Part shown: piece by piece, positions 20,763 through 62,661 of the stretch
Position numbering within the stretch: position 1 is the stretch's first letter
Layout of the letters: every line of letters begins with the position of its first letter
NCBI GenBank assembly: GCA_051294375.1
Contig: CM119270.1
Span: forward strand, 1,982,787 to 2,046,786
Source of the DNA: Paraspadella gotoi
Taxonomy: Eukaryota > Animalia > Chaetognatha
DNA length: 64,000 bases
Direction of reading: 5' to 3'
The notes under the pieces: generated by a model
The model's database searches: none
The model's input: the letters and a program-made list of their open reading frames with translations, nothing else
What the model was told of the DNA's origin: nothing
Program-made: the position numbers and the translations under genes

Positions 20763-20832
<70 letters not shown>

Positions 20833-21926: not shown

Positions 21927-21983
<57 letters not shown>

Positions 21984-22817: not shown

Positions 22818-22864
<47 letters not shown>

Positions 22865-23756: not shown

Positions 23757-23907
23757 AATGGCGCCAACGACTTAAGTCAATCTGATTTATTGCCAAAATG
23801 TACGTTTGAAAGAACTCCCGTCTGCGAAGGCATCGTCTCAATTTTGCCTAGAGGCGCTGTCCACGTCTCATCTCGATCATCGGCCATTTTATAAAAGGCG
23901 CCATCTT
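23757..23907 (+). promoter_or_regulatory. Putative proximal promoter of the TMTC gene: three YY1-like GCCATNTT motifs and a TATAAAAG
   Basis: AAATGGCGCC (~23757, reverse orientation), CGGCCATTTT (23881), TATAAAAG (23890) and GCGCCATCTT (23898) lie just upstream of the ATG at 23921. Motif match only. Confidence 0.35.
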
Positions 23908-23920
23908 CAGGGGGGAAATA

Positions 23921-38507: not shown

Positions 38508-38800
38508 TTTTACTTTCGCCGCGAGTACTCGCGGAGCAACTTTTTGGTCGGTCCGTCTGTCCGTCTATCGTTTGGTCCATCGGTACGTCTATCCGTCGGT
38601 GTGTCCCACTTACGTTAAAAATGAATAGAATTTAGTTATTATATTAAGTTAGTTACTCATTTGTTAAGACAGAAAAAACCTCAAATCTAAGCGACTGCAA
38701 GCGCCGCCTTCAGGAATTCCTAAAACTGTAAGGAATAAAAAGATGGAAGGAAAATAAAGTTACTGCGGCGCAACACATTGGAATCACCGTTCTTAATTTT
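38508..38800 (+). mobile_element. Apparently full-length HINE/DINE-1-like element (~290 bp); duplicate at ~51012-51338
   Basis: T-rich 5' flank, hairpin CCGCGAGTACTCGCGG, (GTCY/GTCG)n tract, conserved core, 3' subterminal inverted repeat GCGGCGCAAC (38765-38774), weak stem-loop GAATCACCGTTC, T-rich 3' flank. Confidence 0.75.
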
Positions 38801-39759
38801 ATTTTCCTGAACTTATCTGTTTTCACCCTCTCTTTTTTTCAACCATCGCCCACTTGAGACAATCCACTCACATTGATCCACCCTCCACCCACCCGTCTTC
38901 CATTAACACCCCCCTCTACCCCTCCACTCTCCACTCCACCCCTCCACAGCCCACCCTCCAATCCTCCAATCTCCATCAATATATTTTCTGCCCCAAAAAT
39001 TCATGATTCGTCGCTTCCACAACTTTTTTCTTTTTTCTTTTTCTTTTTTGTCTTTTTCTTTTCTTTTTTTTTAAGGAAAAAAATTGTCAGGAGGACGACG
39101 ACCGAAACGATGATGATGACGACGATGAATATGACGATGACGACGAGGATAACAAAAAAAAGGAAGACGATGATGACGACGATGATGAAAACGACAACCA
39201 TAACGACGACAAAGACGATGAAGATGACTACAACCTAGACAATGACGACCATGACAACGACGAAAACGACCAAGACGACAGCGACAAAGATGAGTATGAC
39301 GATGACGATGATGATGACGATGACAGTTAAAGTTAAATATGACATGAACTATGTCTTTACTTTTGTCTGTCGCTCAAATGCTCACATGTTGGTCATTAAT
39401 GGGTTATTTATAATATAAATTCTCGATAAATACAAACCAAAGCAGACGGTAGTTTTTTTTATTATAATCAATAATTTCAAATATTAATCAACATAATCAA
39501 AGTAAAAGTAAACACAACAAATAGAAAATTTATCTGAAAGAAAAAAAAAAGAAATTAATTAATTAATTATTTAATTTTTTCGTTAGTCGAATTTTGTCTC
39601 CACAATATTTAAACGGGTTGACTGGCGACGACAACGATGACGACGATGAAGACGATGACGACGACGATGACGACGACGAGCAAAACGACGCCAACTTTTT
39701 CTCCTGGGTCTCATAAGCGATAAGAACTTTGTCTCCAAGGGAGAAAGCCCTAAGTTTAT

Positions 39760-39820
<61 letters not shown>

Positions 39821-41559
39821 GAGAGAGAGAGAGAATAAATTTGAATGAAAGATTTATAACCTATCGCTGTATATATTTATTTATAGAGGAGAATCTAGAC
39901 TGTAATAATTAACTGAAGGTCGTTAATATATTGAAAGTACGTAAGTTAAAAGGAACAGACTGACAAATATTAATGTTTTTAGGGTTATTAACAAAATGAA
40001 CATCTGCTGGAAACTTTAATCCGTCTGTACATTCGCTCTTCCGTTTAACATTCCCTCCGTCTGAACACATTAAATTAAAACTTTGCTATCATTTCTCTCA
40101 TGTAAAGAGAGGTGGTCCGATGTTTAAAAAAAAAGTACAATGTTTCAATAAATGAGGTGTTGCTGTTCTCAGTATATTTATCGTCTTCGTCGTCGTCATC
40201 TTCGTCTTTGTCCTAATTATCGTCGTTGTCGTCGTCGTTGTCGTCTTTGTCCTGATCGTCTTTCTTGTCTTGATCGTTTTTGTTGTGCTCATCGTCGTCG
40301 TCTTTTTCATATTTCGCGATCCAAAAAAAAGATGTTATGATCGATGAGATGGAACGAAATAAGGTCAAGATATGATCGGACGACGACGACGATTACGAGG
40401 ACGATGATGACGACGACGACGATNNNNNNNNNNNNNNNNNNNNNNNNNGATGATGACGAACGATTTTAGTTGTGTGATGATTATTTGTAGGCGATGATCT
40501 CGGTGGCGAGTTGAGATTCAAGAAACTATTATTTCACAGTGAATTTGAGCGCTTTTAGAAAAAGATAAAGGGAAGAAGAAGATGAACTGAGGGGAAACGT
40601 AAGCAGTAGGAAAAAAATATTTGTTGTACTTTTTTCTTCTTATTAGCAGCAGAAAGTTTATGTATCACTTTAGTATCTGCAAGATGAGAGACGAGAGATA
40701 GGATGATCGACGGTAGCAGGGAGAGAGAGAGAGGCATTGAAGATGAGATGGAGGGACTTACTTCTCTGTTTCTTTTTTTTGTTACTCTCTGTCTTCAGTT
40801 AGGTATCGTCACTTATTTTCTCGGATTTTTAACTTATAATCGATGCGAGTGCTCAGGAATCCATCTTCATCTTCTGTTTGAGGTGCGGCGCGTGCGCGCG
40901 GGCAGGGTCGGTGAGCGACTTAATTGGGTAGTGCGACCACACAGCCATTTTTATATTTTCTATTTACTTGTCTTCAATTTCATTTCTTTCTTTTCCTCCT
41001 TGAAGCTTCCTTCTTTTCTTTGTCCCTCTTGCTTACTTTCCGGATTTACTTTTTAATCCCTTTTTTATTTCTTTTGTCATATGCTACACATTAAACCTTC
41101 TCAAATGTTTTCGAGACACTTTTGAAAACCTTATTCATTTGAGATATTGCCTTAATTTTTTTCTCCCTCGTTCTTTGGTTGACCATACTACATTAGCTCC
41201 TCTCTCTCTTTCCCTCTTCTCTTAAAGCCTTCTCTCTCTCTCTCTCTCTCTTCTCTCGTCTCTATTCTCTTCTATCATGTCTTCTCTCTCTCTCCTCCTC
41301 TCTCTCTATCTCTCCTCTCCACTTTTCATTTTTTCCGTCGTTTTATCTATTTCACTGAAAAGTGTTTCTCCGCGCTCCTAGCTTCTGTCTCTGTCTTAAC
41401 TTTCACTCATCAAAAACTGTCCATCCTCAAAAATTCGCAGTTCTCAATTCTCAACTCTCCCCAAATTCTTTCCAACCGACTCTACTTCATCGTTTCCTTC
41501 TTTGAAAGAAAGAGGGTGGTTGTGACCTCCTTTTGCTTCATTTTCTACCTTCGAAATCT

Positions 41560-41690
41560 GTATCTATCGTATCTATCTAATCTATCTAATCTATCTATCT
41601 AATCTATCTATCTATCTATCTATCTATTCTATCTAAATCTATCTATCTATCTATCTAAATCTATCCATGCCATCTATCCAAGTATCTATT
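41560..41690. repeat. (TCTA)n microsatellite
   Basis: Imperfect tandem TCTA run. Confidence 0.9.
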
Positions 41691-42059
41691 TATTCTAAAC
41701 TTTCTATTCATTACTATTCATTTCCTGTTATCGTCTCTCCTCTCTCTTATCTCTCTCTCTCTCGTCCTCGTCTGGGTCTCTCTCTCACCTTCGTTGAAAG
41801 AGGAATGCAATTAAACATTTTTCCTTCGATCGGACGAAAAGATGAAGGAAAAAAAGGAAGGGAGGGAGGCGAGAAAAGGAAGGAAGAAAAGAAACGAAGG
41901 AAAAGGAAAGAAGATGAATCGGAAGCGAGAAGGGAACGCGGAAATCCGATTTCGGTCACTTTGAGCGAAAGATCCGATTGGCAGAAACTAGCTTGAAATG
42001 AAATAAATAAGGAATAAAACGTGAAAAATTTTGCGAATCAAAACTTATTGACCGATTGA

Positions 42060-42250
42060 ATGGTAGTCCGAAGCGAAAACGAAGACACTTTGCCACTCCT
42101 CAACCAACTTTCTCAGGGCCGCGTCCACTCCACCTCGTGGCGTATGGAGAGCGGACCAAGCGATGTCCCGCTGCGACCCGGACGAGTTCACAGCCACCAT
42201 CCGTCCCAACGACCGTCGAGAAGCGTCCGAATCGCTCGTTCTGCGAAGAA
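42060..42250 (+). CDS. Candidate first coding exon of an unidentified gene (MVVRSENEDTLPLLNQLSQGRVHSTSWRMESGPSDVPLRPGRVHSHHPSQRPSRSVRIARSAK...)
   Basis: GC-rich non-repetitive island with ATG at 42060, an open frame and a good donor AA|GTAAGC at 42251. Contains a [DE]xxxLL-type motif (DTLPLL). No family recognised. Confidence 0.33.
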
Positions 42251-44451
42251 GTAAGCATAAACAAACAAGAAAAAAAATGAAAACAAGTAATCGCGAGTTT
42301 TCGATTAAAAAAGATCGAATATTTGCGAGAGTCGGTGGAAACGGACCGACGACAACGATCATACGTACGCAATCACGGCAGATTACAGAAAATACTATGG
42401 TGAGCGCGATTTTAAAAAAAACCTAGATGTACGAAACCTTTTTGGAATAAACATGATAATGATAATTTCGCGATAATTTTTGCTTTGATAAACTCGGACT
42501 TTGAACATATGGAGGTGATTCATTGATTTCCTTTTCTAACGGGCAACGCAATGAAACAACCTCGAGGCGCTTGAATCTAAAAATGGCTCTTGGTTTATCA
42601 TTTGTTTGCTCGTCATTTGTTCTGTCATTATCTCATCTCTTCTACTTTTGTCATTTATCAAGGCTCCCCACCACTTTTTTAATGGTCTTTGTTCTACTCT
42701 CTTTCTTTTTTCGCGCTAACGGCACCCGGGAGCCATTAGAGGTCAGAGCGGCCGAAACCAGAGAAGCTTGAAAAGTCATAAAGGAAAAAAAAGGAAAAAA
42801 GATTGAGGGGAAGAAAATAAATCAAAGGAAAAAAATGGGGTGACTTCTGTTTTTGTAAATATAAATGACAACAAAAATATACACATTATAAATAAGCCTT
42901 TGAAAAGTTACAAAAGAGATAGACCGCAAACGAGAGAGGGAGAGAGACATGAGTGAGTAAGTAAGAGAGAGAGAGAGACCGACAGAGAGAGAGAGAGAGA
43001 GAGATGAAAAATATAAAGCTCGCGTTCCCAAGTCTATATTTATTTTATTCCGCGCGGTGCATTTTAATCAGCTTGTTATACCTTTGTCATACAACTGTCC
43101 CTTTGACAATAAACATAGAGAAATCTAATTAAATGAAATAAAAGTAAACAAATGGAANNNNNNNNNNNNNNNNNNNNNNNNNNNNNNNNNNNNNNNNNNN
43201 NNNNNNNNNNNNNNNNNNNNNNNNNNNNNNNNNNNNNNNNNNNNNNNNNNNNNNNNNNNNNNNNNNNNNNNNNNNNNNNNNNNNNNNNNNNNNNNNNNNN
43301 NNNNNNNNNNNNNNNNNNNNNNNNNNNNNNNNNNNNNNNNNNNNNNNNNNNNNNNNNNNNNNNNNNNNNNNNNNNNNNNNNNNNNNNNNNNNNNNNNNNN
43401 NNNNNNNNNNNNNNNNNNNNNNNNNNNNNNNNNNNNNNNNNNNNNNNNNNNNNNNNNNNNNNNNNNNNNNNNNNNNNNNNNNNNNNNNNNNNNNNNNNNN
43501 NNNNNNNNNNNNNNNNNNNNNNNNNNNNNNNNNNNNNNNNNNNNNNNNNNNNNNNNNNNNNNNNNNNNNNNNNNNNNNNNNNNNNNNNNNNNNNNNNNNN
43601 NNNNNNNNNNNNNNNNNNNNNNNNNNNNNNNNNNNNNNNNNNNNNNNNNNNNNNNNNNNNNNNNNNNNNNNNNNNNNNNNNNNNNNNNNNNNNNNNNNNN
43701 NNNNNNNNNNNNNNNNTTTCTTTTCTTTTCTTCTCTTTTCTTTTCTTTTCTTTTTTCTCTTCTTTTCTTTTTTCCCCTTTTTTTTCAAGTCGACCTAAAT
43801 TTTGTGACTCTTGATTGTATGGTTGTCGTGAAAGTATTTAAACGAAAGTCGCAATGAATAATTAATTGATTAAATTAATCTTCGCCGAAGCAGCACCCAC
43901 TTCCTCCACCTCCCCCCCTCCGCCCCTCCTTACGCCACCATCACAATTAACCACCATTTCTTTCCACCATCCTACCCTTTCTTTCCTAACTGAACATAAT
44001 CGCTCTCATCGACTTTGTCATTATTTCCAAAATAAGTCATAACTTTCTCCCTTTGTCTCTCCCTCGCTTGGTTTCCTCTTTGAATCTTCTGAAACATCGA
44101 CGTCGTAAAATCTTTGTCGTTGTCTTTATCGTCATCATCGTCGTCATTGTCATCATGATCGTCGGCATCGTCATTATCATAGTCATTATCATTGCCGTTG
44201 TCATCAAAATTTGAATTCATAAACGTAATCGTCGTCGCTTTCTAATAGTTGTATGAATTGTAATAATATACTAATGTCATTATTATCATAATCTTCTTCA
44301 ACGTGTTTGTCATTATTGACATCATTATCACCCTCATCATTGTTGGCATAACATTTATCATCGTCGTTGTCATAATCGTCATATTTTGAAATCACTGTCA
44401 TCATTATCGTGATAGTCTTCGTCATCGCCGTTTTATCCTCTTTATCGTGGT

Positions 44452-44453
44452 GC

Positions 44454-44518
<65 letters not shown>

Positions 44519-44540
44519 GTCGTCGTCGTCGTCGTCGTCC
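44452..44540. repeat. (CAT)n-(CGT)n compound microsatellite
   Basis: About 21 CAT units then about 7 CGT units. Confidence 0.95.
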
Positions 44541-46434
44541 TCGTTTCGCCCGTAAATAACATCGAGCGAAACGTTGAGATTTACTGTCGTCATTATTTTC
44601 TTTTATTTTCTTTTATTTTCTTTTATTTTCTTTTATTTTCTTTTATTCTCATTTCATTTCCCCCGAAAGAAAAGCGACATCTCGGATTTATTTTCATTCA
44701 TGTGAGACTCAAAGAATTTGTTTGTCGCGTTGATTCCAAAATTTCTTTGCTGCTTCTTGACGCTGAAGGAATTTTAGGCTTGTGGATATCAGGAGAGAGA
44801 AAGGGAAAAAAAGTGAAATGGGGAAGGAAGCGATTACTGTGAGTTGGGGGGGGGGAAGGAATGACTAGAGGCGTTGAATAAAATCTCAAGAATCGGCATT
44901 GAACGAGAGAAAGTTCATAGTATATAACTAAAATATGTCATCTCCAGCAAATATAACTTAAAAAAGCGTCAAGAAGCAGATTTGATTGATGTTAAAAAAT
45001 CATAATCATTTGATGACAAAAAAAATGACACGAATAAAACTGGAAAGTAGAGGATGTCAAAATGGTACGATTTGCAGTTCAGAAACAATGTTAAAAAGCA
45101 GGGTCTAATTACATTGAAAGTTAGCAGTATTATAATGTCCATAGGTAGAAACGAAAGATGTCTAGAAACAGCATTAAATCATGTCAAGCTGCAACTTCTA
45201 ACAATGTCAAGAAACGCCTATAAAATATGTACATAAAAATTGACGGGCGAATGTCATTGATAAACAGCATTGAATTATGTCAGGAAGCAACATTGTATAA
45301 TGTCATGTCACGAAACATCAACGAATAACTAATGACACCCATTCGACGACCAGCGGCGACATTCAATCTTGTAAATCGACGCGGAACGATTTTCTCTCGC
45401 TCGATGTACACAAAAGAATTTAATCCTTTAATCGGTTTTTTTTTCCTTCTGTAGACGATGATAAAAAAAAAATGGTTGGGAAGGTAAAAATCATTAAATC
45501 CTGACAGGTAATGGGAAATCGGTCTGGTTTATGTTGCTCGACGCCCATAATAATCGTTTTGCTCCAGAAATCGGAACTTATAAATTGCTCTTCGCTCCTA
45601 ACGTCTGGAAGAAACGGCGGGGGAGGTTAGGAAAAGATTGGGAGGAAGGAAAGAGGGAGGAAGAGGAGGAAGGGAGGGAGGAAGAGAGTGAGGGAGAAAA
45701 GGAGAGGGGGAAAGAGAGGGAGGAAAAGGATGGCTGACTATAGAGGAGGAAGAGGAGGGAGGGGAGAAAGGAGCAGGAGAGGAAGAGGGAGGAAAGGATG
45801 CTGGGATATAGATGGAGGAAGAGGAGGAGAGGAGGAAAGGAGAGGAGGAAGAGAGGGAGAAGGGAGAAAGGGGAGGGAGGAAGAGGAGGAAGAGGAGCGG
45901 GAGGAAGGAGGAAAGGAGAGGGAGGAAGATAAAGAGGCAGGGAGAGGGAGGAAGGAGGAAAAGAGAGGGAGGAAGAGAGGGAGGAAAGGAGGAAAAGGGG
46001 GAAGGAAGTGAAGGAGAGGGAGGAAGGAGGAAAAGTGAGAAAAGGGATGAGGAATGAGAAGGAAAGGAAAAGAGTGAAATATAGCGAAAATATAAGAGAG
46101 TGGTTTTTTATACAATTGAAACATTCTTTGGAACTTTATATTTCATTGTGAGAGAGTCTTGATAGAGAGCATGCAAGGACCTGCTATTATATTATGTTAT
46201 GAAATTGGTACAACCAATATAATTATATTATGAAGGAGGGTTTCAGGCTTCAACCACCGTCCCGTAAAAAAATTGTGAATTGACTGACGACTCTGGGGTG
46301 AAGCGGTTAAAAAAAGGAAGGAATGAAAAAGTGAAAGATGAGAAAAGAAGGGAAGAGTAAAGTAGAAATGATGGTAAAGAGAATGAAAGGAAATTAAAGT
46401 AAATTAAATAGAAAGAAAGAAAAAATAAATATAT

Positions 46435-46701
46435 TGAAGAGGCTGGTTTTACAGGGCGCCACACCCGCAGCGGTATCACCTCGTGGCGACAGCGAGACAG
46501 CATGTTCATGTAGTCCAGAGCTTTGGATCTGGCAGTAGGCCCATGCCTACAGGCGGGTTACCCGGTCCATCCCACTTTCTACATGACAACCTCAGGGCTC
46601 GAACCAGGGACGCACATTGGGATGGTGCATTAGTCCACTGAGCCACTGAGGCGCTGCGAAAGAAACAGCTTTAATCCATCTGTGGTGATAGGACCACCAG
46701 A
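46435..46701 (-). mobile_element. Solo LTR (267 bp) of the tRNA-promoter TRIM, flanked by an ATAT(AT) target-site duplication
   Basis: Same sequence as both direct repeats at 57481-57762 and 57960-58230, with the same flanks (AAATATAT|TGAAGAGG ... CCACCAGA|ATATAT). Confidence 0.85.
46586..46655 (-). promoter_or_regulatory. tRNA-derived type-2 RNA polymerase III promoter inside the LTR
   Basis: Minus strand reads GCCTCAG-TGGCTCAGTGG (A box, 46645-46635)-29 nt-GGTTCGAGCCC (B box, 46605-46595)-TGAGGT. GCCTCAG/CTGAGGT can close an acceptor-like stem. Confidence 0.78.
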
Positions 46702-47199
46702 ATATATTCAAAACTTAAAGCTTCTTAAAATTAGATTTTTTTCCAAAGGAGAAATATTCATAACATCCTTATTCTCACGAGAAGACATTAACTTTATACA
46801 AACTACACTAAGTCTCAAAACTTAATTCCCATATTGAAAATAAAAATGAAGCCAACTGCAAAGTCAAGATATTGAAAAAAAAAGAGGGCTGCCTTCAAAA
46901 GGCAACTCTTAGTCGCCGAACATCAAACTCACTTCAAATCTAAATTTTTTTTTCCCTTTCGTAATTTTTTTTTGTCCCAGCAAATGTTTTTGCGAGAGTC
47001 AATGGTGAACATCAAAGCAAAGTATCTGGAGCAAAACGTTTTGGTGAATGACTTTTAAAAACTGTTTGGCAACCGGGTTTTTTTTTATTAACGTTTGGGT
47101 GAATATTTTGGAAATTAGTAATGAATACGTAAGCGAAGATGTTTAAAAAAATAAAATGTTTAATTAAAGATGGGGGAAAAATGTTTTTAGATAACTTGC

Positions 47200-47318
47200 T
47201 AAATGTTTCTGTGAATGTCTAACTGAATGTATCAGTGAATGTTTTTGCGAATGTCTTACAATGTCTCGTTGAATGTCTCGTTTAATGTCTCAGTGAATGT
47301 CTCAGTGAATGTTTCGGT
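47200..47318. repeat. 12-bp minisatellite (GTGAATGTCTCA)n; duplicate at ~58750-58875
   Basis: About 10 degenerate units. Confidence 0.85.
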
Positions 47319-47398
47319 GAAAAAAAAAACATTTTCCTTTTGACTCAATCCTCGTTTTTCAAGTTTCTGGAAAAACATTCGAAGGAGGATAAATATGG

Positions 47399-47441
<43 letters not shown>

Positions 47442-47934
47442 ACTTTCATCTCTCTCTTCTTTGAATCTCCCGTCTTTGGCAGAGGAAAAAACCTTCAAAG
47501 AAAAAGTCCAGAACGAAAAAAATTCCCGAAGACTTAAAATATTTTGACTCCGAAAAAATGAGATAAAGATAAAGATATTTATTAAATGAATGGATGATTT
47601 ATATATTGGTTATACCAATTACATACTTAAGGGAGTGGTCTTTTCATACAATTGAAACATTCTTTGAAATATTATACCACTTCATCGATAGGGAAGCCAG
47701 GTTGACTGGGAGTGAATAAATAAGACTGTGAGAGAGTCTTGATTGAAAGCTTGCAGAATCCTGCTATGTTATTATCTTGTAAGTGTGATGGAGGCCTTAA
47801 ACCACCAAAGCCTGTCCAAAGTCAGGGACAAGATAGCTTATTTATTAAATGAATGGATAATTTTTATACTGGTTGTACCAATTTCATATAAATATTTTAG
47901 AATTTGTAGTCGATTTTGAAGAAAGAAAAAAAAA

Positions 47935-48136
47935 GGTAGCAGTCTCTTTGATTTGAGGTTTTTCCTGTCTTAACAAATGAGCAACCAACTATATGCAAGT
48001 TATGAGCATTTTTAACGTAAGAGGGACAGACCGACGAACAGACATACTGACGAACCGACAGACCGACCGACCGACGGACCGACAGAAAAAGTGACTCATA
48101 GAATTGCCCCACGAGTATTAGCGGTGCAACTTAAAA
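47935..48136 (-). mobile_element. HINE/DINE-1-like element, diverged partial copy; duplicate at ~59545-59755
   Basis: GATTTGAGGTTTTTCCTGTCTTAACAAATGAGCAACCAACTATA...GGGACAGACCGAC(n)...CCACGAGTATTAGCGGTGCAACTTAAAA. Confidence 0.72.
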
Positions 48137-48862
48137 GGGAAAAAATATAGAATAAATAAAACCGGAAATGAAATGACATTTGAAGTAGAAAGTCGAAGGC
48201 GCGAAGAAAGTCTGACGGTCGGTGTGTGCCCAGTGTGCCCGGTGGGGGTGTAGCGAGTCGGGGTGTGTCAGGCTGGGGTTTGTTTGGCCTGAGAGGGCTA
48301 AGTCATGGTGCGCCAGGTTGGAGGGAACCCGTTGGGGGGATGATCACCGTCTTGGTGTGGCCGATCAAGTGTGTCCATTCGAGGTGTGCCTTGTTGATTT
48401 GTGCCCGGCCAAGTGTGCACATTCGGTCGCGTTCAGTCGACGCGAAAGTTGAGACCCAAATTGATTGGTTTTCAATCTTCCGGATTTTTTTTCCCTTCGA
48501 TTTTTTTTTAGATGTCGAACGACGACGACAAAGATGACGACGAGGAAGACGATGACATTTAGAGAAATAGTGACAATTAAAAAGACGACGCAGAAGATGA
48601 TGACCAAGACAAAGATGACGACGACGACGACGACTATGATCACGATTTTTGAGTATTTTTTTTTTTAGTATTAAGAAGCGAGAACCTTAACTTAATCCAC
48701 CCAATGGAAGTAGTTTAACATAAGTAAACAAGTTAACAAATAGAATATTTTAAAGTACAAATTATGCCAGAAAAACAGAAAAAAGAAAAAAGGAAAACAG
48801 AAAATCGAATAAAATCGCGAAGTAAAAACAAAATAAAAGACAAAACTGATTTTCTTTTTCTT

Positions 48863-49397
48863 AAACAAGAACGGTAATTCAAATGTGTTGCGCCGACATG
48901 ACATGACATGATATGATATGAAATATGACTTGCCATGACTAAAAAAACTTTCTTAGCCCACGAACTGCACCGGAATTACGTCTTTTGTTTTTTTATAATT
49001 TTAGGATTTCCTGAAGGCGGCGCTCGTAGTCCCTTAAATTTTTTCCCTTCTTAACAAATGGTCATTGAGCAACCAACTATATGTAAGTTATGAGCATTTT
49101 TAACATAAGTGGGACAGACCGACGNNNNNNNNNNNNNNNNNNNNNNNNNNNNNNNNNNNNNNNNNNNNNNNNNNNNNNNNNNNNNNNNNNNNNNNNNNNN
49201 NNNNNNNNNNNNNNNNNNNNNNNNNNNNNNNNNNNNNNNNNNNNNNNNNNNNNNNNNNNNNNNNNNNNNNNNNNNNNNNNNNNNNNNNNNNNNNNNNNNN
49301 NNNNNNNNNNNNNNNNNNNNNNNNNNNNNNNNNNNNNNNNNNNNNNNNNNNNNGACCGACAGAATTGATCCGCGAGTACTCGCGGCGCAACTAAAAA
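48863..49397 (-). mobile_element. Full-length HINE/DINE-1-like element with its microsatellite inside the N gap; duplicate at ~60510-61022
   Basis: Hairpin end CCGCGAGTACTCGCGGCGCAACTAAAAA (49370-49397). The other end has the subterminal inverted repeat GTTGCGCCG (48887-48895) and GAACGGTAATTC, as in the 38.5-kb copy. Confidence 0.75.
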
Positions 49398-50242
49398 CAA
49401 AAGATTTTAAAAAAATCCTGTTTTGGAAAATATGTAAAACGAATTTTGAGACTCGATAAATTATTTATAAGTAAAAAACATTGGCGGAAGAGGGAAGCGA
49501 GACGAAGGACGGGAGAAAATTGGCGAAGTGAATATAGGGAATGATGTCTTAGAAAAGGTTATATTACTAGAATATTTATAAGTATAATAGTATTATGAAC
49601 AACATTGATTAAATCAAAGTGAAACGTTATTATAAGAAACTAAACAAAATGAAGATGGATACCTCTTCTCTGTTTCTGGGTTTTATTCCTCTGTAATTAT
49701 ATTATTAATTTTCAAATTTTTCTTTGAATATAGAAAAATAAATATACTTGTAAAATGATATCTGTATTAAGAAATAAGTAGAGCAGAAATATAAGAAAAG
49801 TTTTATTAAAAAAAAAAATATTATGGTTACTGCTTAATGTAAGAGAGAAAATCTTCAGGGAGATGAAGTTTCCCATTTGCTATGTCACCTCAACTCAAGA
49901 GAGAGAGAGAGCAGAGAGAGATGAGAGAGAGTATAGAGAGAGAGGAGAGAGGAGACGAGAGGAGGAGAGAGGAGAGAGATTAGAAGAGAGAGAGCGGAAT
50001 GTGGCCTCGATTCGTTACCCGTCAAACGTCCTGTTTTGGGTCATATGCTTATGTCATCGAATAAAGATTAAAGGTTTTTCGTCGTCGTCGTCTTATTCGT
50101 CGTCGTCGTCTTCTTCTTATTCGTCGTTACTTTGACGTTTTCGTCGTCGTCGTCGTCGTCGTCGTCATCGTCATTGCTGTACTCATCGTTTTTGTCGTCG
50201 TTTTTGACAGCCTTGCCCTCATCTCAACATCCCCGTCGTCGA

Positions 50243-50273
<31 letters not shown>

Positions 50274-53200
50274 TTCATCGTCGTCGCTTGTTTCCTCTTC
50301 GTCATCTTCGTCATCGTCCTCTTCGTTGTCGTCGTCCTCGTCTTCCTCATCGTCGTCCTCTTCCCTCGTATTCGTCATATTGCTCTTCGTTATCGTCGTC
50401 GTCGTCGTCATCGTCATCTCTTCCACACTCAATCAATCTTCACCTTTTTAGACCAAAACGACGAAAATTTTGAAAAATGAAAAATGAAAAACGGAAGAAC
50501 AAAAAATTCTTCTTTTTCTCATCTTTCCTTTTTTCCCCTTTTTTTCCTTTCCTCCTTTTCCTCCTTTTTTCTTTCCTCCTTTTTTCTATTTTCCTTTCCT
50601 TTTTTTCTTTTTTCCTTTCCTTCTTTTTCTTCCTTTTTTCTTTCCCTCCTTTTTCCTCCTTTTTCCTCCTTTTTTTCTTTTTTCTTTCCTCCTTTTTTCT
50701 CCTTTTTTTGACTGACGGCGAAAATATTGTCCGGAAAAAACTACAAAAAAGGATTGAAGACGAAAAGTCGCCACGTTAATTTGTTAAATGCAAATAATTT
50801 GGATAGTGTATTAATTATATCAGGAACAATGTCACGATTGTTGTGAAAATTTCTATGTAACCATTTGCAATCGACTTTAATAATACATTNNNNNNNNNNN
50901 NNNNNNNNNNNNNNTTTCTTGGGAGGGACCGAGGAGGGGTTTTGTTTGTTCGTGGTCGAATGCACTTGATAATCAGTTAACATGAATTTAAAAATTAACG
51001 ATTTCGTTGCTATTTTACTTTTCGCCGCGAGTACTTCGCGAGCAACCTTTCCGCGATTTGGTCTCGACTCGCGGGGCATCTGGTCGGTCCGTTGCCAGTT
51101 TGCATCGTTTGATCCGTCGTGTCATCCAACGTCGGTCTATGTCCACTTAACTTAAAAATGATGAATTATTATTATTTTAGTTTGTTACTCATTTTGTTAC
51201 GACAGAAAAAACCTCAAATCTAAAGTGACTGCCAAGCGCCCGCTTCAGGAATTCCTTAAAACTGTAAGGAATAAAAAGATGGAAGGGAAAATAAAGTACT
51301 GCGGCGCAACAACATTGGAATCACCGTTCTTAATTTTATTTTCCTGAACTTTATTTCATGTTTTCACCCCTCTTTTTTTCCACCATCGCCTCCACTGATG
51401 ACCAATCACTCACATCTATCCACCCTCACACACCACCCGTCTTCCATTAACGACCCCCCTCTAACCCCTTCCACTCTCCACTCCACCCTCCACAAGCACC
51501 CACCCTCCAATCCTCCAATCTCCCTTCAATATATTTTCTGCCCCAAAAATTTCCATATTTCGTCGCTCCACAACTTTTTTCTTTTTCTTTTTCTTTTTTG
51601 CTTTTTCTTTTCTTTTTTTTTAAGGAAAAAAATATCAGTCAGGAGGGACGACGGACCGAAACGATGATGATGACAGACGATGATATGACGATGACGACAG
51701 GATAACAAAAAAAGGAAGCGATGATGACGACGATGATGAAAACGACAACCATAAACGACGACAAAGAGATTGAGATGACTACAAACCTAAGCCAATGACG
51801 ACCATGACACCGACGAAAACGACCATAGACGAACAGCGACACGAAGATGAGTATGACGATGACGATGATATTGACGATGACAGTTAAAGTTAAAATGACA
51901 TGAAACTATTCTTTACTTTTGTCTGTTCGCTCAAATGCTCACATGTTGGTCATTAATGGGTTATTTTTAATATAGAATCTCGATAAATGACAACCAAAGC
52001 AGCGTTTTTAAATAATAATTTCAAAATATTAATCAACATAATCAAGTTAAAAGTAAACACCAACCAAATAGAAAATTATGCTAAAGAAAAAAAAGAAATT
52101 AATTAATTTAATTATTTAATTTTTTTCGTTAGTCGAATTTGTGTCTCCACAATATTTTAAACGGTTTGGACTGGCGTGAAAAACGAAGGGGTGGTGACGA
52201 CGATGAAACGATGACGACGACGATGACGACGACGAGCAAAACGACGCAACTTTTTCTCCTGAGGTACTCATAAAGCGATAAGACTTTGTCTCCAAGGGAG
52301 AAAGCCCTAGAGTTTATACGAGAGAGAGAGAGAGAGCAAGAGAGAGAGAGAGAGAGAGAGTAGATCTCAGAGGAAGAGAGAAGAGAAGAGAGAAGGAAGA
52401 GTAGAGAGAGATGAGAGAGAGAATAAATTTTGAATGAAAAGATTTATAAACCTATCGCTGGTTAATATTTTATATAGAGGAAATTCTAGACTGTAATAAA
52501 TTAACTGAAGGTCGTTAATATATGGAATAGTACGTAAGTTAAGAAGGAACAGACTGACAAATATTATGTTTTAGGGTTATTAACAAATGAAACATCTGCT
52601 TGGAAACTTTAATCCGTACAGCTCTTATACGTTTAACATTCCCTCCGCTGATACACATTTAAATTAAAACTTTGCTATCATTTCTCTACATGTAAAGAGA
52701 GGTGGTCCGATGGTTTATAAAAAAAGTAAAATGTTTTCATAAATGAGGTGTTAGCTGTTCTTCAGTATATTTATCCGTCTTCGTCGTCGTCATCTTCGTC
52801 TTTGTCCTAATTATCGTCTGTTGTTCGTCTGTCGTTGTCGTCTTTGTCCTGATCGTACTTTTCTTGTTCTTGATCGTTTTTGTTGGCTCATCTCGTCGTC
52901 TTTGTCATATTTCGCGATCCAAAAAAAAAAATGTATGATCGATGAGATGGAACGAAATAAGGTCAAACATATTGATCGGACGACGACGACGATTACGAGG
53001 ACGATGATGACGACGACGACGATGCATGATGACGACGATTTTGATTTGTGCATGATTATATTTTGAGGCGTATGAGTCTCGGTTGCAGATGATGATATAA
53101 GAAACTATTATTTTCAACAGTAATTTGAGCTTTTAAAAAAAAAGAAAAGAGAGAGGGAAAGTAAGAGTAGATAGGAAGAGAGAGACGAGAAGAGAGAGAG

Positions 53201-53327
53201 AGGGAGAGAGAGAGAGAGACGCAGGAGACGAGACGAGAGGAGAGGGAGAGAGAGAGAGTGGACGAGAGAGATATTGAGAGATGAGTAGAGAGAGAGATAG
53301 AGAGCAGACGATAGAGAGTGGAGAGAG

Positions 53328-53371
<44 letters not shown>

Positions 53372-56300
53372 GACGAGAGGAGAGAGAGAGAGAAAGTGTG
53401 TCTGCGTTGGGGTTGGACGCGCTAACGGGGCACCCGGGAGCCATTTAGAGGTCCAGAGCGGCCCCGAAACCAGAGAAGGCTGAAAAGTCATAAAGGAAAA
53501 AAAGAAAAAAGATTGAGGGGAGAAAATAAATTTCAAAGGAAAAAAAAAAATTGGGGTTGGGGACTTCTGTTTTGTAAATATAATGACAACCCAAAAATAT
53601 ACACATTATAAAATAAGCCCTTGATAAAGTACCAAAAAGAGATATAGACCGCAAACGAGAGAGGGTGAGAGACATGAGTTGAGTAAGTAAAGAGAAGAAG
53701 AGAGACGCTGAGGCAGAGAGAGAGAGAGTAGAGAAAAATATTAAGCTCGCGTTCCGCAAGTCTATTATTTATTTTATTCCGCGCGGCTTTGCATTTGTAA
53801 TCAGCTTGTATATACCTTGTGTCATACAACTGTCCTTTGACCAATAAACATAGAGAAATCTAATTAAATGAAATAAAGTAAACAAATGGAAAGAGTGGGC
53901 GACGTAGAAAAGAGAGAGAGAGAGAGACGACGATGAGACGAGAGAGAGAGAAAGAGGACGAGATGAGAGAGAGAGCTGACGAGAGAGAGAGAGAGATAGA
54001 GAGAGGAGAGAGGAGGGAGGGATGCGAAAATGATTGGACAGTCCGCCTCGGCAAGATAGAGAGTATTGATTGCGTGGGGTGTGGGAGCAGCATAGAGAAA
54101 GAAAAGAAGAGAGAGAGAAGAGAGAGAGAGGAGAGGAGAGAGAGAGAGGGAGGAGGAGAGGAGGAGAGAGAGAGAGATTCCTCAACTGAAATTATTGTTT
54201 TTTCCAAGTGCGTTAATAAATCAAGACGTTGAAGAGGTAGAAGTGTTAAATCAAAAATTACTCATCTTCTCTTCTCTCTCTTCTCTCTCTTCGTCTCTCT
54301 CTTCTCTCTCTCTCTCCTCTCTCTCTCTCCTCTCTCTCCTCTTCTCTCCACCCGAACGGAATGAAGAGACTCATTTTTAATCTTTTTCTCGGTTTCTTCA
54401 TTAAAAAATCATTTCGTTTCGTTTTTCTTTTTCTTTTTCTTTTTCTTTTTCTTTTCTTTTCATTCTTTTCTTCTTTCTTTTTTCTTTTCTTTTCTTTTTT
54501 TTTCTTCTCTTTTCTTTCTTCTTCTTTTCTCTTTCTTTTCTTTTTTTCCTTCTTTTCTTTTTTCAAGTCGACTAAATTTGTAACTCATTGATTGTAAGGT
54601 CGGTCGTGAAAAGTATTTTAACGAAAGTCGCAATGAATAATTAATTATTAAATTAAATCTTCCCGAAGCAGGCACCCACTTCCTCCCATCCTCCCCCACT
54701 CCGCCCCCCTTACCCCACCATCCACAATTAACCACCATTGTTCCACCACCCATTACCCTTTCTTTACTACTGAACATAATCGCTCTCATCGACTTTTGTC
54801 ATTATTCCAAAATAAGTCATAACTTTTCCCTTCGCTCTCTCCCTTCGCTTGGTTTCCTCTTTTGAATCATTCTGAAACATCGACGCGATAAAAATCTTTG
54901 TCGTGTCGTTTATCGTTATCATTCGTCCGTCATTGCTTTTCATCATGATCGTCAGGCATCGTCATTATTCATAGTCTATTATCCATTGCCGGTGTCATCA
55001 AAATTTTGAATTACATAAACCGTAATCGTCGTCCGCTTTCTATAGTTGTATGAATTGTAATAATATACTAATGTCATTATTATCTAATCTCTTTCAACGT
55101 GTTTGTCATTATATTGACATCATTATCACCCTCATTCATTGTTGCATAACATTTCATCATGTCGTTGTCATAATTCGTCAATTTGAAATCACTGTCTCAT
55201 TTAATCGTGATAGTCTTTCGTCATCGCCGTTTTATCTCTTTATCGTTGGTGCTCATCATCATCATCATCATCTCATCTCAATCATCATCATCATTCATCA
55301 TCATCATCATAATCATCATCGTCGTCGTCGTCGTCGTCGTCGTCCTTCGTTTTCGCCCGTTAAATAACATCGAGCCGAAACGTTGGATTTACTGTCGTCA
55401 TTATTTTCTTTTATTTTCTTTTATTTCTTTTATTTTCTTTATTTTCTTTTATTTCTTCATATTCATCTTCCCTCCAAAGAAAAAAGCGACCATCTCGGAT
55501 TTATTTTCATTTCATGTGAGACTCAAAAGAAATTTGTTTGTCGCGTTGATTCCAAAATTTCTTTGCTGCTTCTTGACGCTGAAGAAATTTTTAGCTTGTG
55601 GATATCAGGAAGAGGAAGAAGCAGAAAAAAAGTGAAATTTGGTGGAAGGGAAAGCCGATTACTGTGAGTGTGGGGGGGGGAAGGAATGACTAGACGGCGT
55701 TGAATAATAATCTCAAGAATCGGCATGGAACGAAGAGGGGAAAGTCATTAGTATTATAACTAAAATATTGTTCATCTCCAGCAAATATAAACTTAAAAAA
55801 GGCGTCAAGAAGCAGATTTGACTTGATGTTAAAAAATCATAATCATTTGATGACATAAAAAAATGACACGAATTAAAACTGGAAAGTAGAGGATGTCAAA
55901 TGGTACGATTTGCAGTTCAGAAACCAATGTTAAAAAGCCAGGGTCTAATACATTTGAAAGTTAGCGTAGTATTATAATGTCCAAGGTAGAAACGAAAGAT
56001 GTTCTAGAAACAGCATTAAATCTATGTTCAAGCTGCAACTTCTAACAATGTCAAGAAACGCCTATTAAAATATGTACCATAAAAATTGACCGGTGCGAAT
56101 GTTCATTGATAAAACAGCATTGAATTATGTCAGGGAGCAACATTGTTATAATGTCATGTCACGAAACATCAACGTAATAACTAATGACACCCATTCGACG
56201 ACCAGCGGCGGACATTCAATCTTGTAAATCGGACGCGGAACGATTTTCTCCGCTCGAGTTACACAAAGATATTATAACCTTTAATTCGGTTTTTTTTTTC

Positions 56301-57480
56301 CTTCTGTAGGACGATTGAATAAAAAAAAAATGGTTGGGAAGTTTAAAAATCATTAAATCCTGACAGGTTAATGGGAAATCGGTCTGGTTTATGTTGCTCG
56401 ACGCCCATAATAATCGTTTTGCTTCCAGAAATCGGACACTTATTTTAAATTGCTCTATCGCTTCCTAACTCTGGAAGAAACGGCGAGTGAGGGAGGAAGA
56501 GAGAGGGGAAGGGGCGAGAGGGAGAGTTAGAGGAGAGAAGGAGTGGATGGGAGGAGAAGGAAAGTGTGGGGGAGAGGAGGCGGGGGAAGGAGCCGGAGTG
56601 TCGAGGAAAGTGCAGGGGCGTGAGAGAGAGTGCAAACTGGTAGGGCCGATATATTGGGATCGGTGAGGGGGTGCTATCACGGGGGAGGCTGACGCTGTGC
56701 GGGAGGTTGCAGGGTCGCGTGTGGAACTGCTGGTAGAGAAGAGGGAACTGGAAGTGAGAGGGTTAGGATAGGATGTCTGGGTTCGAGGTGGAAGAGGAGG
56801 AAGAGGAGGAAGGGAGGGAAGAGAGGGAGGAAAGGAGTGGATATAGAGGAGAAGAGGAGGAGAGGGAGAAAGGACGAGGAGGAAGAGAGCGGAGGAAGGG
56901 AGAAAGGGGAGAGGGAGGAAGAGGAGGAAGAGGAGCGGGAGGAAGGAGGAAAGGAGAGGGAGGAAGATAAAGAGGGCAGGAGAGGAGGAAGGAGGAAAAG
57001 GAGGGAGGAAGAGAGGGAGGAAAGGAGGAAAAAAGGGTGGAAGCGAAGTGAAGGAGAGGGAGGAAGGAGGAAAAGTGAGAAAAGGGAATGAGGAATTGAG
57101 AAGGGAAAGGGGAAAAGAGTGAAATAGCGAAAAATTAAGAGAGTGGTTTTTTTATACAATTGAAACATTACTTTTGAACTTTATATTTCATTGTGAGAGA
57201 GTCTTAGATAGAGAGCATGCAAGGAACCTGCTATTATATATATGTTATGAATGGTACAACCAATATATTATATTATGAAGGAGGGTTTTCAGGCTTCAAC
57301 ACCGTCCCGTAAAAAAATTGTGAATTGACTGACGCACTCTGGGGGTGAACGGTTTAAAAAAAGGAAGGAAATGAAAAAGTGAAGAATGCAGAAAGAAGGG
57401 AGAGTAAGTAGAAATGATGGTAAAGAGAATGAAAGGAAATTAAAAGTAATTAAATACGAAGAAAGAAAAAATAAATATAT

Positions 57481-58230
57481 TGAAGAGGTGGTTTTACAGG
57501 GCGCCACACCCGCGCTCGGTATCACTTCGTGGGCGACAGCGAGACAGCATGTTTCATGTAGTCCAGAGCTTTGGATCTGGCAGTAGGGCCATGCCTACAG
57601 GCGGGGTTACCCGGTCCATCCCACTTTCTACATGAACACAACCTCAGGGCTCGAACCAGGAACGCACAGTTGGGATTGCGCTCATTTATGTCCACTGGAG
57701 CCACTGAGGGCGCTGCGAAAGGAAACAGCTTTAATCCATCTGTGTGAAATAGGACCACCAGACAGCGCCCCCAGGACTTCTCGGCATTCATGAGAGTACG
57801 AAGCAGGGGGATGAAGGCATGGTCTCTCCGCTGAACCTCTCTTCATTCTGGTGGCCTTGCTTTTGAGTTGGCAGCTGGCGTAGCTCAAAACCACATCAAG
57901 GGCAGAGGAGTATTATCATGCCCGGTGTGCGGTGTTCGGGATCACGTCGGGCTCACCATTGAAGAGGCTGGTTTTAACAGGGACCCCACACCCGCCAGCG
58001 GAAACACCTCGTGGCGACAGCGAGACAGCATGTTCATGTAGTCCAGAGCTTTGGATCTGGCAGTAGGGCCCATGCCTACAGGCGGGTTACACCGGTCCAT
58101 CCCACTTTCTCACATGACAACCTCAGGGCTCGACCAGGACGCCACATTGGGATGGTGCATTAGTTCACTTGAGCCACTGAGCGGCGTAAAGAAACAGCTT
58201 TAACCATCTGTGTGTGATAGGACCACCAGA
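57481..58230 (-). mobile_element. Terminal-repeat retrotransposon in miniature (TRIM, 750 bp) whose LTRs contain a tRNA-derived Pol III promoter (Helenus/TRIMp3-like architecture)
   Basis: Two ~270-bp direct repeats (57481-57762, 57960-58230) flank a 197-bp non-coding interior. The minus-strand LTR ends in CA. One nt later comes the PBS TGGTGAGCCCGACGTGAT, complementary to the tRNA-Trp 3' end. A short G-run (CTGGGGGCG) precedes the 3' LTR. Flanks are ATAT. Confidence 0.85.
57941..57958 (-). other. Primer-binding site for tRNA-Trp
   Basis: Plus strand ATCACGTCGGGCTCACCA versus the metazoan tRNA-Trp 3' end ATCACGTCGGGGTCACCA (17/18, tRNA sequence recalled from memory). Confidence 0.85.
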
Positions 58231-58979
58231 AATATATTTCAAAACTTAAAGCTTCTATAAATTAGATTTTTTTTCAAAGGAGAAATATTTCATAACATCC
58301 TTATTCTCCACGAGAAGACATTAACTTTATACAAACTACACTAAGCTCTCAAAACTTTAATTCCCATATTGAAATAAAAATGAAGCCAACTGCAAAGTCA
58401 AGGATATTGAAAAAAAAAGAGGGCTGCCTTCAAAAGGCAACTCTTAGTCGCCGAACATCAAACTCACTTTTCAAATCTAAATTTTTTTCCCTTTCGTAAT
58501 TTTTTTTCTGTCCCAGCAAATGTTTTTTTGCGAGAGTCAATGGTGAAATCCAAAGCAAAGTATCTGGAGCAAAACGTTTTGCGTGAATGACTTTCTTTAA
58601 AAAACTGTTTGGCAACCGGGTTTTTTTTATTAAGTTTGGGTGATATTATTTTGGAGAATAGTAATTGAATACGTAAGCGAGATGTTTTAAAAAAATTAAA
58701 ATGCTTTAATTAAAGTATGGGGGAAAAATGTTTTTAGATAACATTGCTAACATGTTTTCTGTGAATGTCTAACTGAATTTTATTCAGTGAATGTTTTTTG
58801 CGAATGTTCTTTACAATGTTCTCGTTGATGTGCTCGTTTAATGTCTCAGTGAATGTCTTCCATGAATGTTTCGGTGAAAAAAAAAAACTTTTTCCTTTTG
58901 ACTCAATCCTCGTTTTCAAGTTTCTGGGAAAAACATTCGAAGGAGGATAAATATGGCATCTCTCTCTCTCTCTCTCTCT

Positions 58980-59045
<66 letters not shown>

Positions 59046-62000
59046 TGACTTTCATCTCTCTCTTCTTGAATCTCCGTCTTTGGCAGAGCGAAAAAACCCT
59101 TCAAAGGAAAAAGTCCAGAACGAAAAAAATTCCACGAAGACATTAAATTTTTGACTCCGAAAAATCGAGATAAAGATAAAGATATTTATTAATGAATGAT
59201 GATTTATATTTGGTATAACCAATTACATACTTAAGGGAGTGGTTCTTTTCATACAATTGAAACATTCTTTGAAAATATTATACCACTTCATCGATAAGGG
59301 AAGCCAGGTTGACTGGGAGTGAATAAATAAGACTGCTGAGAGAGTCTTGATTGAAGCTTGCAAATCCTGCTATGTATTATTCTGTGTAAGTGTGATGGAG
59401 GCCTTAAACACCAAAGCCTGTCAAAGTCAGGGACAAGGATAGCTTATTTATTAAATGAATGGATTAATTTTTATACTGCGTTGTTACCAATTTCTATAAA
59501 TATTTTTAGAATTTGTTAGTCGATTTGAAGAAAGAAAAAAAAAAAGGTTAGCATCATCTTTTGATTTGAGGTTTTTTCTCCTGTTCTTAACAAATGAGCA
59601 ACCAACTATATGCAAGTTATGAGCATTTTTAAACGTAAGAGGACAGAATCGACGAAAGGACATACTGACGAACCGACGATACGAGCCGACCGACGGGACC
59701 GACAGGAAAAGTGACTCATAGAATTGCCCCACGAGTATTAGCGGTGCAACTTAAAGCGGAAAAAATATAGAAATAAATAAAACCGGGAAATGAAATTGAC
59801 ATTTGAAGTAGAAAGTCGAAGGCGCGAAGAAAAGTCTGACGGTTCGTAGTGTGCCCAGCTGTGCCGGTGGGGCTGTAGCGAGTCGGGTGTGTCAGGCTGG
59901 GGTTTGTTTGCACTGAGAGGCGCTAAGTCATGGTGCGCCAGGGTTGGAGGGAACCCGTTGGGGGATGATCACCGTCATGGGATGTGCCGATCAAGTGTGT
60001 CCATTCGTAGGTGTGCCTTTGTTGATTTGCTGCCAACGCCAAGTGTGCAACATTCGTTCCGTTCAGCGACGCGAAAGTTGAGACCCAAATTGATTGGTTT
60101 TTAATTCTTCGGATTTTTTTTTCCCGTTCGATTTTTTTTAGAGTGTCGAACGCGACGCGACAAAGATGACGACGAGGAAGACGATGACACTTAGAGAAGA
60201 ATAGTGACAATTAAAAAGACGAGCAGAGATGAGACCAAAACAAAAGATGACGACGACGACGACGGACTATGATCAGATTTTGAGTATTTTTTTTTTTTTT
60301 AGTATTTAAGAAGCTTGAGAACCTTACTTCAATCCACCCCAATGGAAAGTATTTACATAGGTAAACAAGTTACAAATAGAATATTTTAAAGGTACAAAAT
60401 TTATGCCAGAAAAACCAGAAAAAAGGAAAAAAGGAAAACAGAAATCGAATTAAAAATTCCGCGAAAGTTAAAAACAAAATAAAAGGACAAAACTGATTTT
60501 CTTTTTTCTTAAACAAGAACGTAATTCAAATGTGTTTAGCGCCGGACATGACATGACATGATATATATGAAATATGATCTTGCCATGACTAAAAAAAACT
60601 TTCTTAGCCCACGACTGCCCCGGAATTACGTTCTTTGTTTTTTTTAATTTTAGGATTTCCTGAAGGCGGCGCTACGTAGTCCCTTAATTTTTTCCCTCTT
60701 AACAATAGGTCATTTGAGCAACCAACTATAGTAGTAAGTTAACAATGGCGACCGGAAGCACGACCGAAGCGACGGCGACGACGATCCGACGAGTTACCTT
60801 GCGAACATCGCCGACCACCGAAGCCGACTACAATCGAGCCCGACGAATCGGTCACGACCGACACGGAAGATCGACCGACCGCCGACCCGCACGCACCGAT
60901 CCGCACGACCGACCGGACCGACCGACCGACCGACGACCGACGACCACCGACCGACGCGACCGACCGACCGACCGACCGACCGACACGAATTGATCCGCGA
61001 GTACTCCTCGGCGCAACTCAAACCAATCAAAGATTTTAAAAAAATCCTGTTTTGGGAAAATATGTTAAAACGATTTTGAGACTCGATAATTATTTATAAT
61101 TAAAAAACATCTTGCGGAGAGGGAAGCGAGACGAAGGACCGTGAGAAAATTGGCGAGTGATATAGGAATGATGTCTTAGAAAAGGTATATATTACTAGAA
61201 TATTATTAAGTCATTTAAATAGTTATTATAACACACATTTGATTAAATCAAAGTGAAACGTTATTATAAGAAACTAAACAAAATTGAAGATGGGGACCTC
61301 TTCTCTGTTTCTGGGTTTTATTCCTCTTGAATTATATTATTAATTTTCAAATTTTTCCTCTTGAATATAGAAAAATAAATATACTTATGTAAAATGATAT
61401 CTGTATAGAAATAAGTAGAGCAGAAATATAAGAAAAGTTTTATTAAAAAAAAAATATGGTTACTGCTTAATGTAAAGAGAAAATCTTCAGGAGATGAAGT
61501 TTCCCATTTGCTATGTCACCTCAATCAGGGGAGAGGAGAAAGTAAGAGAGAGAGGAAGAGAGACGAGAGGAGAGAGAGGAGAGAGATTAGAAGAGAGAGA
61601 GCGGATGGCCTCGTATTCGTTACCCCGTCAAACGTCCCTGTTTTGGGTCTGCTTATTCGAATAAGATTAAAGGTTTTTCGTCGTCTGTCGTCTTATTCTT
61701 TCGTCGCGCTTTTTTTCGTATGAGTTTGTGTCGTCGCGCGTCTTCTCTTCTACTCATCGTTGCGGTTTTTGACCTGCACACTCCCGTGTGATCGTCGTCT
61801 CGCGCTGTCTCGTCACTCGTCGCTTTCCTTCGTCATCTTCGATCGTTCGTGTCGTCTCGTCCCATCGTCGTCCTTTCGATGCTTGCTCGTACGTCGTGTC
61901 TGTCGTGACGTATCGTCTTCACTTCATCGTTTTGTTTCGTCGTTTTTGAACAGCCTTGCCCTCATCTCAACATCCCCGTCGTTCGCGTCGTCGTCTCGTC

Positions 62001-62661
62001 GACGTCGTCGTCTCTTTCAATCGGTCGTGCTTGTTTCCTCTTCGTCATCTTCGTCATCGTCCTCTTCGTTGTCGTCTTCCTCGGTCTTCCTCATCGTCGT
62101 CCTCTTCCCTGTATTCGTCAATTTGCTCTTCGTTATTCGTCTTCGTCGTTGTCGTCATCGTCATCTTCTTCCACCTCAATCAATCTTCACCTTTTATAGA
62201 CCAAAACGACGAAAAATTTTTGGAAAAATGAAAAATGAAAAAAACGGGAAGAACAAAAAATCTTCTTTTTCTCATCTTTCCTTTTTTCCCCTTTTTTTCC
62301 TTTCCTCCTTTCCTCCTTTTTCTTTCTTCCTTTTTCTATTTTCTTCCTTTTTTTCTTTTTTCCTTTCCCTTCTTTGTTCCTTTTTCTTTACCCCTCCTTT
62401 TCCTCCCTTTTTCCTCCTTTTTTCTTTTTTCTTTCCTCCTTTCTCCTTTTTTGACTGACCGGGCGAAGAATATTGTCCGGAAAAAAACTTACAAAAAAGG
62501 GACTGAAGACGAAAAAGTCGCCACGGTTAATTTGTTAAATGCAAATTAATTTGGGATAGTTGTATTAATTATATCGAAAACAATGTCACGATATGATTTG
62601 TGAAAATTTCTAGTATACCATTGCAATCGACTTTAATAATACATTTGATGAGAGAAGAGAG

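Follow-up and report, generated by a model that had tools for sequence, protein, structure and literature searches.

A candidate twister ribozyme in the LTRs of a Helenus-type TRIM from the chaetognath Paraspadella gotoi

Introduction

How can a tRNA-type promoter that lies inside an LTR yield an RNA with usable ends? This question is raised by a 750-bp element at 57481-58230 of the 64,000-nt stretch of Paraspadella gotoi DNA analysed here (hereafter, the window). The initial annotation, made from the letters of the DNA, had described it as a miniature LTR retrotransposon (TRIM) with a tRNA-derived Pol III promoter in each LTR, primed by tRNA-Trp, starting with TC and probably belonging to a family not yet described. 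The TRIM interpretation stands, in that the element is a multi-copy TRIM of the already known Helenus type, and so do the Trp primer-binding site (PBS), the TC start and the lack of a matching published family. What had been overlooked is a twister ribozyme motif in each LTR. Its presence shifts the likely RNA intermediate from a terminally redundant transcript to a self-cut unit, and an LTR ribozyme would be a concrete answer to the question of the RNA ends.

Results

The element is protein-free and lies on the minus strand in an LTR-PBS-interior-LTR layout. The 5′ LTR (58230-57960, 271 nt as written) starts with TCTGG and ends with CTCTTCA; it is followed by a non-coding interior of 197 nt (57959-57763) and by the 3′ LTR (57762-57481, 282 nt). 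When the two LTRs were aligned, 249 of 289 columns were identical, with 15 mismatches and 25 gap columns. The longest ATG-started frame in the element comprises 89 codons for amino acids, and Pfam gave no hit in the nine scanned frames that overlap it, in agreement with the earlier description of two direct repeats of about 270 bp around 197 bp free of credible ORFs. Over 150 selected frames of the 230 in the window Pfam returned nothing credible, and no autonomous Gypsy helper was seen among them. Elsewhere in the window, the open frame 23852-24436 (plus strand) has an end that we take to resemble exon 1 of a gene for a TMTC-type O-mannosyltransferase; it had no match in Pfam, in a protein search or in the PDB. 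Rfam microRNA and snoRNA matches below the gathering score (e.g., 54099-54345 and 22718-22869) were dismissed as low-complexity artefacts, three alignments among the matches listed falling on GA/CT microsatellites.

One A after the LTR end CTCTTCA, the minus strand carries an 18-nt PBS (57958-57941) identical at 17 of 18 positions to the tRNA-Trp site of Kojima's Fig. S2 (PMC10886601). At the remaining position it has the G variant that PMC2582038 lists for the CsRn1 clade, and the next best PBS-like site in the window has four mismatches. The Trp-type PBS placed 1 nt past the LTR by the initial annotation was thus confirmed. The polypurine tract (57785-57763, minus strand) is weak, just as had been noted: within this noisy segment it shows a G5 run (57772-57768), has 8 purines among the last 15 interior bases, and ends in TG just before the 3′ LTR.

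The segment holding the full element consists of noisy, indel-rich long-read sequence, and the window contains a 12-kb tandem duplication (38418-50889 and 50915-62645, joined by 25 N), the copies of which are 85-89% alike, with differences dominated by indels. For comparison we used contigs from four of the nine listed sequencing runs: X1 and X2, which come from one sample, possibly the source of the assembly, and X5 and X9 from two other studies. The X1 contigs flanking the element have a depth of 85-100, and six other listed X1 contigs have 64-110. The flanks are thus covered as deeply as other single loci, which makes the duplication a probable artefact of assembly, introduced by gap filling. 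The first copy is accurate, as 92% of its sampled words were found in run X1. It holds a clean single LTR (46701-46435, minus strand, 267 nt) between the same two flanks as the full element, which served us as the reference reading of the LTR sequence. With the duplication likely artefactual, this single LTR is either a short-read collapse or a solo-LTR allele. Dating of the insertion by LTR divergence was rejected, because the LTR differences are mostly read errors. The window also has blocks (9038-12470, 16515-17511 and 19529-22927) of 0.5-1.6-kb repeats with 83-92% identity, in direct and inverted orientation and often beside N gaps; they represent either another repeat family or further assembly duplication.

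Given this sequence quality, the two-LTR structure at the locus might itself be a long-read or gap-filling artefact, with just a solo LTR really present. The cleaner copy of the locus does have one LTR between the same flanks, and the full element, lying in indel-rich sequence, is spanned as a whole by no contig of X1, X2, X5 or X9. Against this, both LTR-interior junctions were found at high, nearly equal depth in the two further studies: the interior/3′ LTR junction contig has a depth of 2222 in X5 (where a flank contig has 7.85) and of 210.6 in X9, and the LTR/PBS junction contig has 226.2 in X9, figures that are not copy numbers and are read here as “many copies”. Low-depth contigs of these two runs range from about 6 to 41, and long contigs show LTR parts within unrelated flanks. 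These data clearly show that we deal with a dispersed multi-copy family and not with a read artefact, whatever the locus itself holds. Moreover, the depth at the LTR start is about twice that of the interior (4414 vs. 2222 in X5, 447 vs. 211-226 in X9), which suggests that solo LTRs are few and favours short-read collapse at the clean copy. An artefact confined to this locus is therefore highly improbable. In X9 the depth is higher over the twister part (872.5 vs. 447 at the LTR start); this run is possibly RNA, and the difference was not counted as evidence.

The family also includes older members, since truncated, diverged copies, about 85-87% alike, are present within unique flanks in contigs of X1 and X5. 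In metagenome contigs, the LTR/PBS junction had no matches. A motif search of the published Helenus data file, where line breaks may hide single motifs, revealed no family sharing the three diagnostic motifs of the element, in keeping with the proposal that the family is undescribed.

The termini of the element are TC...CA, within an AT-rich duplicated target. ATAT is present on both sides, as annotated: the downstream copy (57480-57477) adjoins the 3′ LTR, and the upstream copy (58235-58232) is separated from the 5′ LTR by an extra T (58231) that is absent from the clean copy. There, ATAT abuts both LTR ends, before TCTGG and after CTCTTCA, and at this one locus ATATAT fits equally well. The oddity remarked upon earlier, TCTGG in place of a TG start, turned out to be real: an X5 contig with a depth of 562 begins exactly at 58230, a second X5 contig diverges from the reference at TCTGG, and at least five X1 and at least four X2 contigs have loose ends at TCTGG whose plus-strand sequence opens with A, not with CA. 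These contig ends indicate that the TC start extends beyond this one locus. A TT...AA/TATA register was rejected, because TC opens the X5 contig and an X9 flank contig runs only as far as CA. Among 235 published Helenus/Ajax LTR entries (data file of PMC10886601), 226 start with TG, eight with TA, one with G and none with TC. A TC start is rare but not new, since TCCA is included in the LTR_retriever motif list (PMC8220671) and non-TGCA ends account for about 1% of plant LTR elements (PMC9804982). In one noisy read-out, TG precedes the 3′ LTR at its inner edge; speculatively, the helper integrase might trim this inner-side TG, thus producing the TC end.

Each LTR contains a tRNA-like segment on the minus strand. 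In the 5′ LTR (58183-58120, with the predicted +1 at 58183), the A box lies at 58176-58166 and the B box at 58135-58126; in the 3′ LTR (57710-57641), they lie at 57703-57693 and 57657-57647. The clean LTR has its A box at 46645 and its B box at 46605. Box A starts at LTR position 57 and box B at 97, with 41 nt between them as counted, and such a pair, defined by a consensus pattern, appeared in none of 20,000 dinucleotide shuffles. An acceptor-like stem can form between the seven bases before box A and seven bases behind box B (517 of 200,000 random draws did as well). The A box quoted in the initial annotation is found letter for letter in the clean copy, and both LTRs of the element have one extra base in it; the B box of the 5′ LTR is one T short of the quoted form. 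The boxes and the 7-bp acceptor-like stem thus uphold a tRNA-like segment, but neither ARAGORN nor Rfam (at E up to 10) found a tRNA in the LTR. A functional tRNA was rejected for this reason, and the segment is best viewed as a remnant whose Pol III activity is presumed from its sequence. A 5S/Cassandra or Ajax type was rejected for the element.

Directly behind the B box of this remnant, at LTR positions 116-196, we found a circularly permuted, P5-type twister motif. It lies on the minus strand at 58117-58034 in the 5′ LTR, at 57635-57554 in the 3′ LTR and at 46586-46506 in the clean LTR; cleavage is predicted at 58089/58088 in the first and at 57609/57608 in the second. Its parts come in this order: P5 (8 bp), the GA strand, a linker of six bases, the UAA site, P2, the hairpin of P3, P4 (5 bp) and the L4 loop. 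The catalytic G and A, the UAA site, both pseudoknots and helices P3-P5 are intact as judged from sequence and pairing. P1 is missing, with the 6-base linker in its stead, P2 has 3 bp and a bulged U in comparison with the 4-bp norm, and P3 is long. The 5′ LTR motif matched both a loose sequence pattern and a descriptor comprising the catalytic G and A, both pseudoknots, P2 and P4. The 3′ LTR as written fails the descriptor by an extra P2 base (place 57603); of the depth units, 891 of 898 (X9) and 5965 of 6082 (X5) lack this base.

In the window, besides the 5′ LTR, the descriptor matched the clean LTR and, as a third site, an unrelated repeat (47783-47826). Among controls, it recovered five of seven phage P5-type twisters and none of 239 loci fitting only the loose pattern, a negative set taken from viral contigs and consisting mostly of chance matches. 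By chance, it appeared in none of 20,000 LTR shuffles and once in 30 shuffled windows; these figures are favourable, since the P2 criterion was widened to a 3-base strand after the motif had been seen. In the LTR copy itself, Rfam recognised no twister even with E allowed up to 10. Hammerhead and HDV ribozymes in the LTR were rejected, the former for want of a core and of an Rfam match. In searches of open-access literature, where most listed papers were judged by title and the start of the abstract, no twister within an LTR element came up.

The unrelated repeat carries a second P5-type twister motif (47774-47836, plus strand; a noisy duplicate lies within 59149-59526). With Rfam Twister-P5 it reaches 25.6 bits (on 91 bases, E 0.0005), short of the 37.6 set for gathering. 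Like the LTR motif, it has a P2 strand of three bases and a bulged U, and the two differ by compensatory changes in P2, pseudoknot 2, P4 and P5. This covariation comes from two families of one genome and was taken from the descriptor, as MAFFT misaligned the second family because of its different P3 length. Its linker is fully palindromic: a linker duplex would comprise 8 bp (−11.7 kcal/mol), and between the LTR copies of the element 4 bp (−8.1 kcal/mol). The motif resides in a unit of about 260 bases bounded by 50-base direct repeats (47576-47625 and 47839-47888). A simple scan of this unit found no A/B boxes, and partial relatives are present at 46093-46198 and 57135-57234; it is possibly a non-LTR ribozyme repeat.

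Is the LTR twister active? It could be an inactive passenger of an ordinary Helenus-type TRIM, for instance brought in when a SINE carrying a ribozyme inserted into the LTR; Kojima does suggest SINE insertion as the origin of Helenus (PMC10886601). Pol III would then read from +1 through the 3′ LTR and on to the first T-run of the flank; the transcript would have an R region of 218 bases, and strand transfer would be normal. In line with this, the clean LTR has no T4 run downstream of +1, a T6 run occurs 10 bases into the flank, and the single T4 of the interior is one T shorter in contig loose ends. The absence of T4 is unremarkable in itself, as 68% of shuffles are also T4-free, and selection against T runs was rejected on this ground. 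The unconstrained ViennaRNA fold recovers P3, P4 and the 8-bp P5, and puts P2 in another register with a probability of 0.63, thereby tying up the catalytic G, a point in favour of the passenger reading; the program ignores pseudoknots. On the other hand, the pseudoknots and catalytic bases are intact, and the odd P2, common to the unrelated family, argues against decay. Flaws in P1 and P2 are reported to be tolerated, while those in the pseudoknots or catalytic bases are not (PMC11662667), and cutting without P1 is described as inefficient (PMC8501958). We consider activity of the LTR twister plausible from its sequence and an inactive passenger unlikely.

Discussion

In this work, we propose that the element is a Pol III-transcribed TRIM whose transcript cuts itself twice, and whose excised unit closes into a circle that a CsRn1-like Gypsy helper copies from a tRNA-Trp primer. 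We assign this reading a probability of about one half. Pol III would likely transcribe from the 5′ LTR, starting at LTR position 50, and the twister would cut once per LTR, after LTR position 142. The predicted cuts lie 480 bases apart in the window, or about 460 allowing for inserted errors, and the double cut would release an LTR-plus-interior unit of about 460 bases that has no terminal repeat. Two LTRs can be restored from a unit of this kind only if reverse transcription reads it as a circle, as has been proposed for plant LTR retrozymes. Circularisation of the unit would likely follow, with tRNA-Trp as the primer and the CsRn1-like helper carrying out both copying and insertion. Speculatively, the short self-complementary linker may pair both LTR copies, such that full elements would be cut well and solo LTRs would not. 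Taken together with this pairing and the TC...CA ends, the element would be an animal twister-based LTR retrozyme: a Pol III TRIM with a P1-less ribozyme that cuts best upon LTR pairing, a circle of about 460 bases and Trp-primed Gypsy copying. This fuller version we put forward tentatively, at less than even odds.

The twister might instead cut merely to trim the end of a linear RNA, with no circle involved, as in RTE-associated twisters. One case is Perere-3 of Schistosoma, whose RNA is trimmed at the 5′ end by twister variants (PMC8501958), and inefficient cutting would leave singly cut RNAs that retain terminal redundancy. The motif is present in both LTRs, however, and a double cut removes all redundancy, which would make a circle the simplest template, as judged from what is described for retrozymes (PMC4918200, PMC7761336). 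Linear trimming thus appears rather improbable.

If the twister-based cycle is true, LTR retrozymes, so far a matter of plants and hammerheads, would extend to animals and to a second ribozyme class. Genomic twisters would acquire a role, and a further source of abundant non-coding circular RNA would be recognized. Along with the hammerhead core in wasp Helenus-2 LTRs described below, this would make ribozyme-generated circles a recurrent way to define RNA ends in TRIMs with tRNA-type promoters. Without the twister, the element would be one more Helenus-type family with an unusual end.

Among known systems, the element is closest in design to Helenus/TRIMp3 (Kojima 2024, PMC10886601), which it resembles in size, layout, A/B boxes in the LTR and a Gypsy-type PBS. 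The boxes of Helenus/TRIMp3 are given there as TRGCY..YGG (A) and GGTTC (B), and the animal families have target site duplications (TSDs) of 4 bp, a length compatible with the flanks of the element (ATAT, though ATATAT fits them too). The Helenus features that we tested (a short non-coding element with two LTRs, PBS, boxes and dispersed copies) are all present except for the usual TG start. Pol III transcription is described in that source as unvalidated in Helenus itself. The element differs from Helenus in lacking shared diagnostic motifs, in its TC start, in a more eroded tRNA segment and in the twister-type ribozyme. Particularly alike are Helenus-2_SyJa and Helenus-2_SyUm from Synergus, which have a tRNA-Trp PBS and a tRNA segment near the start of their 277-bp LTRs with a ribozyme core behind it. 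By eye, in Data S1, Helenus-2_SyJa-LTR and Helenus-2_SyUm-LTR each show behind the tRNA segment a hammerhead core with three plausible stems, as judged against the hammerhead consensus. In the text of PMC10886601, twister is unmentioned and hammerhead occurs solely in a reference title.

Plant LTR retrozymes (PMC4918200, PMC7761336) are also non-coding, with a self-cleaving motif per LTR, a PBS and a polypurine tract, a 4-bp TSD and dependence on Gypsy, features that the element, as seen or as predicted, would share. Their unit forms a circle, from which a Gypsy enzyme, starting at the PBS, makes copies of more than unit length. They differ in having a type III hammerhead, a tRNA-Met PBS and a longer unit, whereas the element has a twister, a tRNA-Trp PBS and promoter boxes of its own. 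Circles have been shown for plant retrozymes, and that of the element is a prediction made from sequence. Animal retrozymes are said to have no LTRs, PBS or polypurine tract (PMC7761336). The element falls outside LTR retrozymes as defined, having no hammerhead and no Met PBS, yet it likely would work like one.

With type-P5 twisters (Rfam RF02684), the LTR motif shares the order of its parts, the GA strand, the UAA cut site, the L4 loop, both pseudoknots, P4 and P5, and it departs from them in the linker replacing P1, the 3-bp P2 with its bulged U, the long P3 and the absence of an Rfam score. The CsRn1 clade of Ty3/Gypsy (PMC2582038) resembles the element in the Trp PBS, including the G variant, and has a 4-bp TSD, which the ATAT flanks of the element would fit; its members differ in being autonomous and starting with TGT. 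The ant PbTRIM (PMC3532108) is likewise an animal TRIM, with ATAT as its commonest TSD, but it is Leu-primed, has TG...CA ends and carries a TATA-type promoter, unlike the Trp-primed element with its TC...CA ends and its tRNA-like promoter segment.
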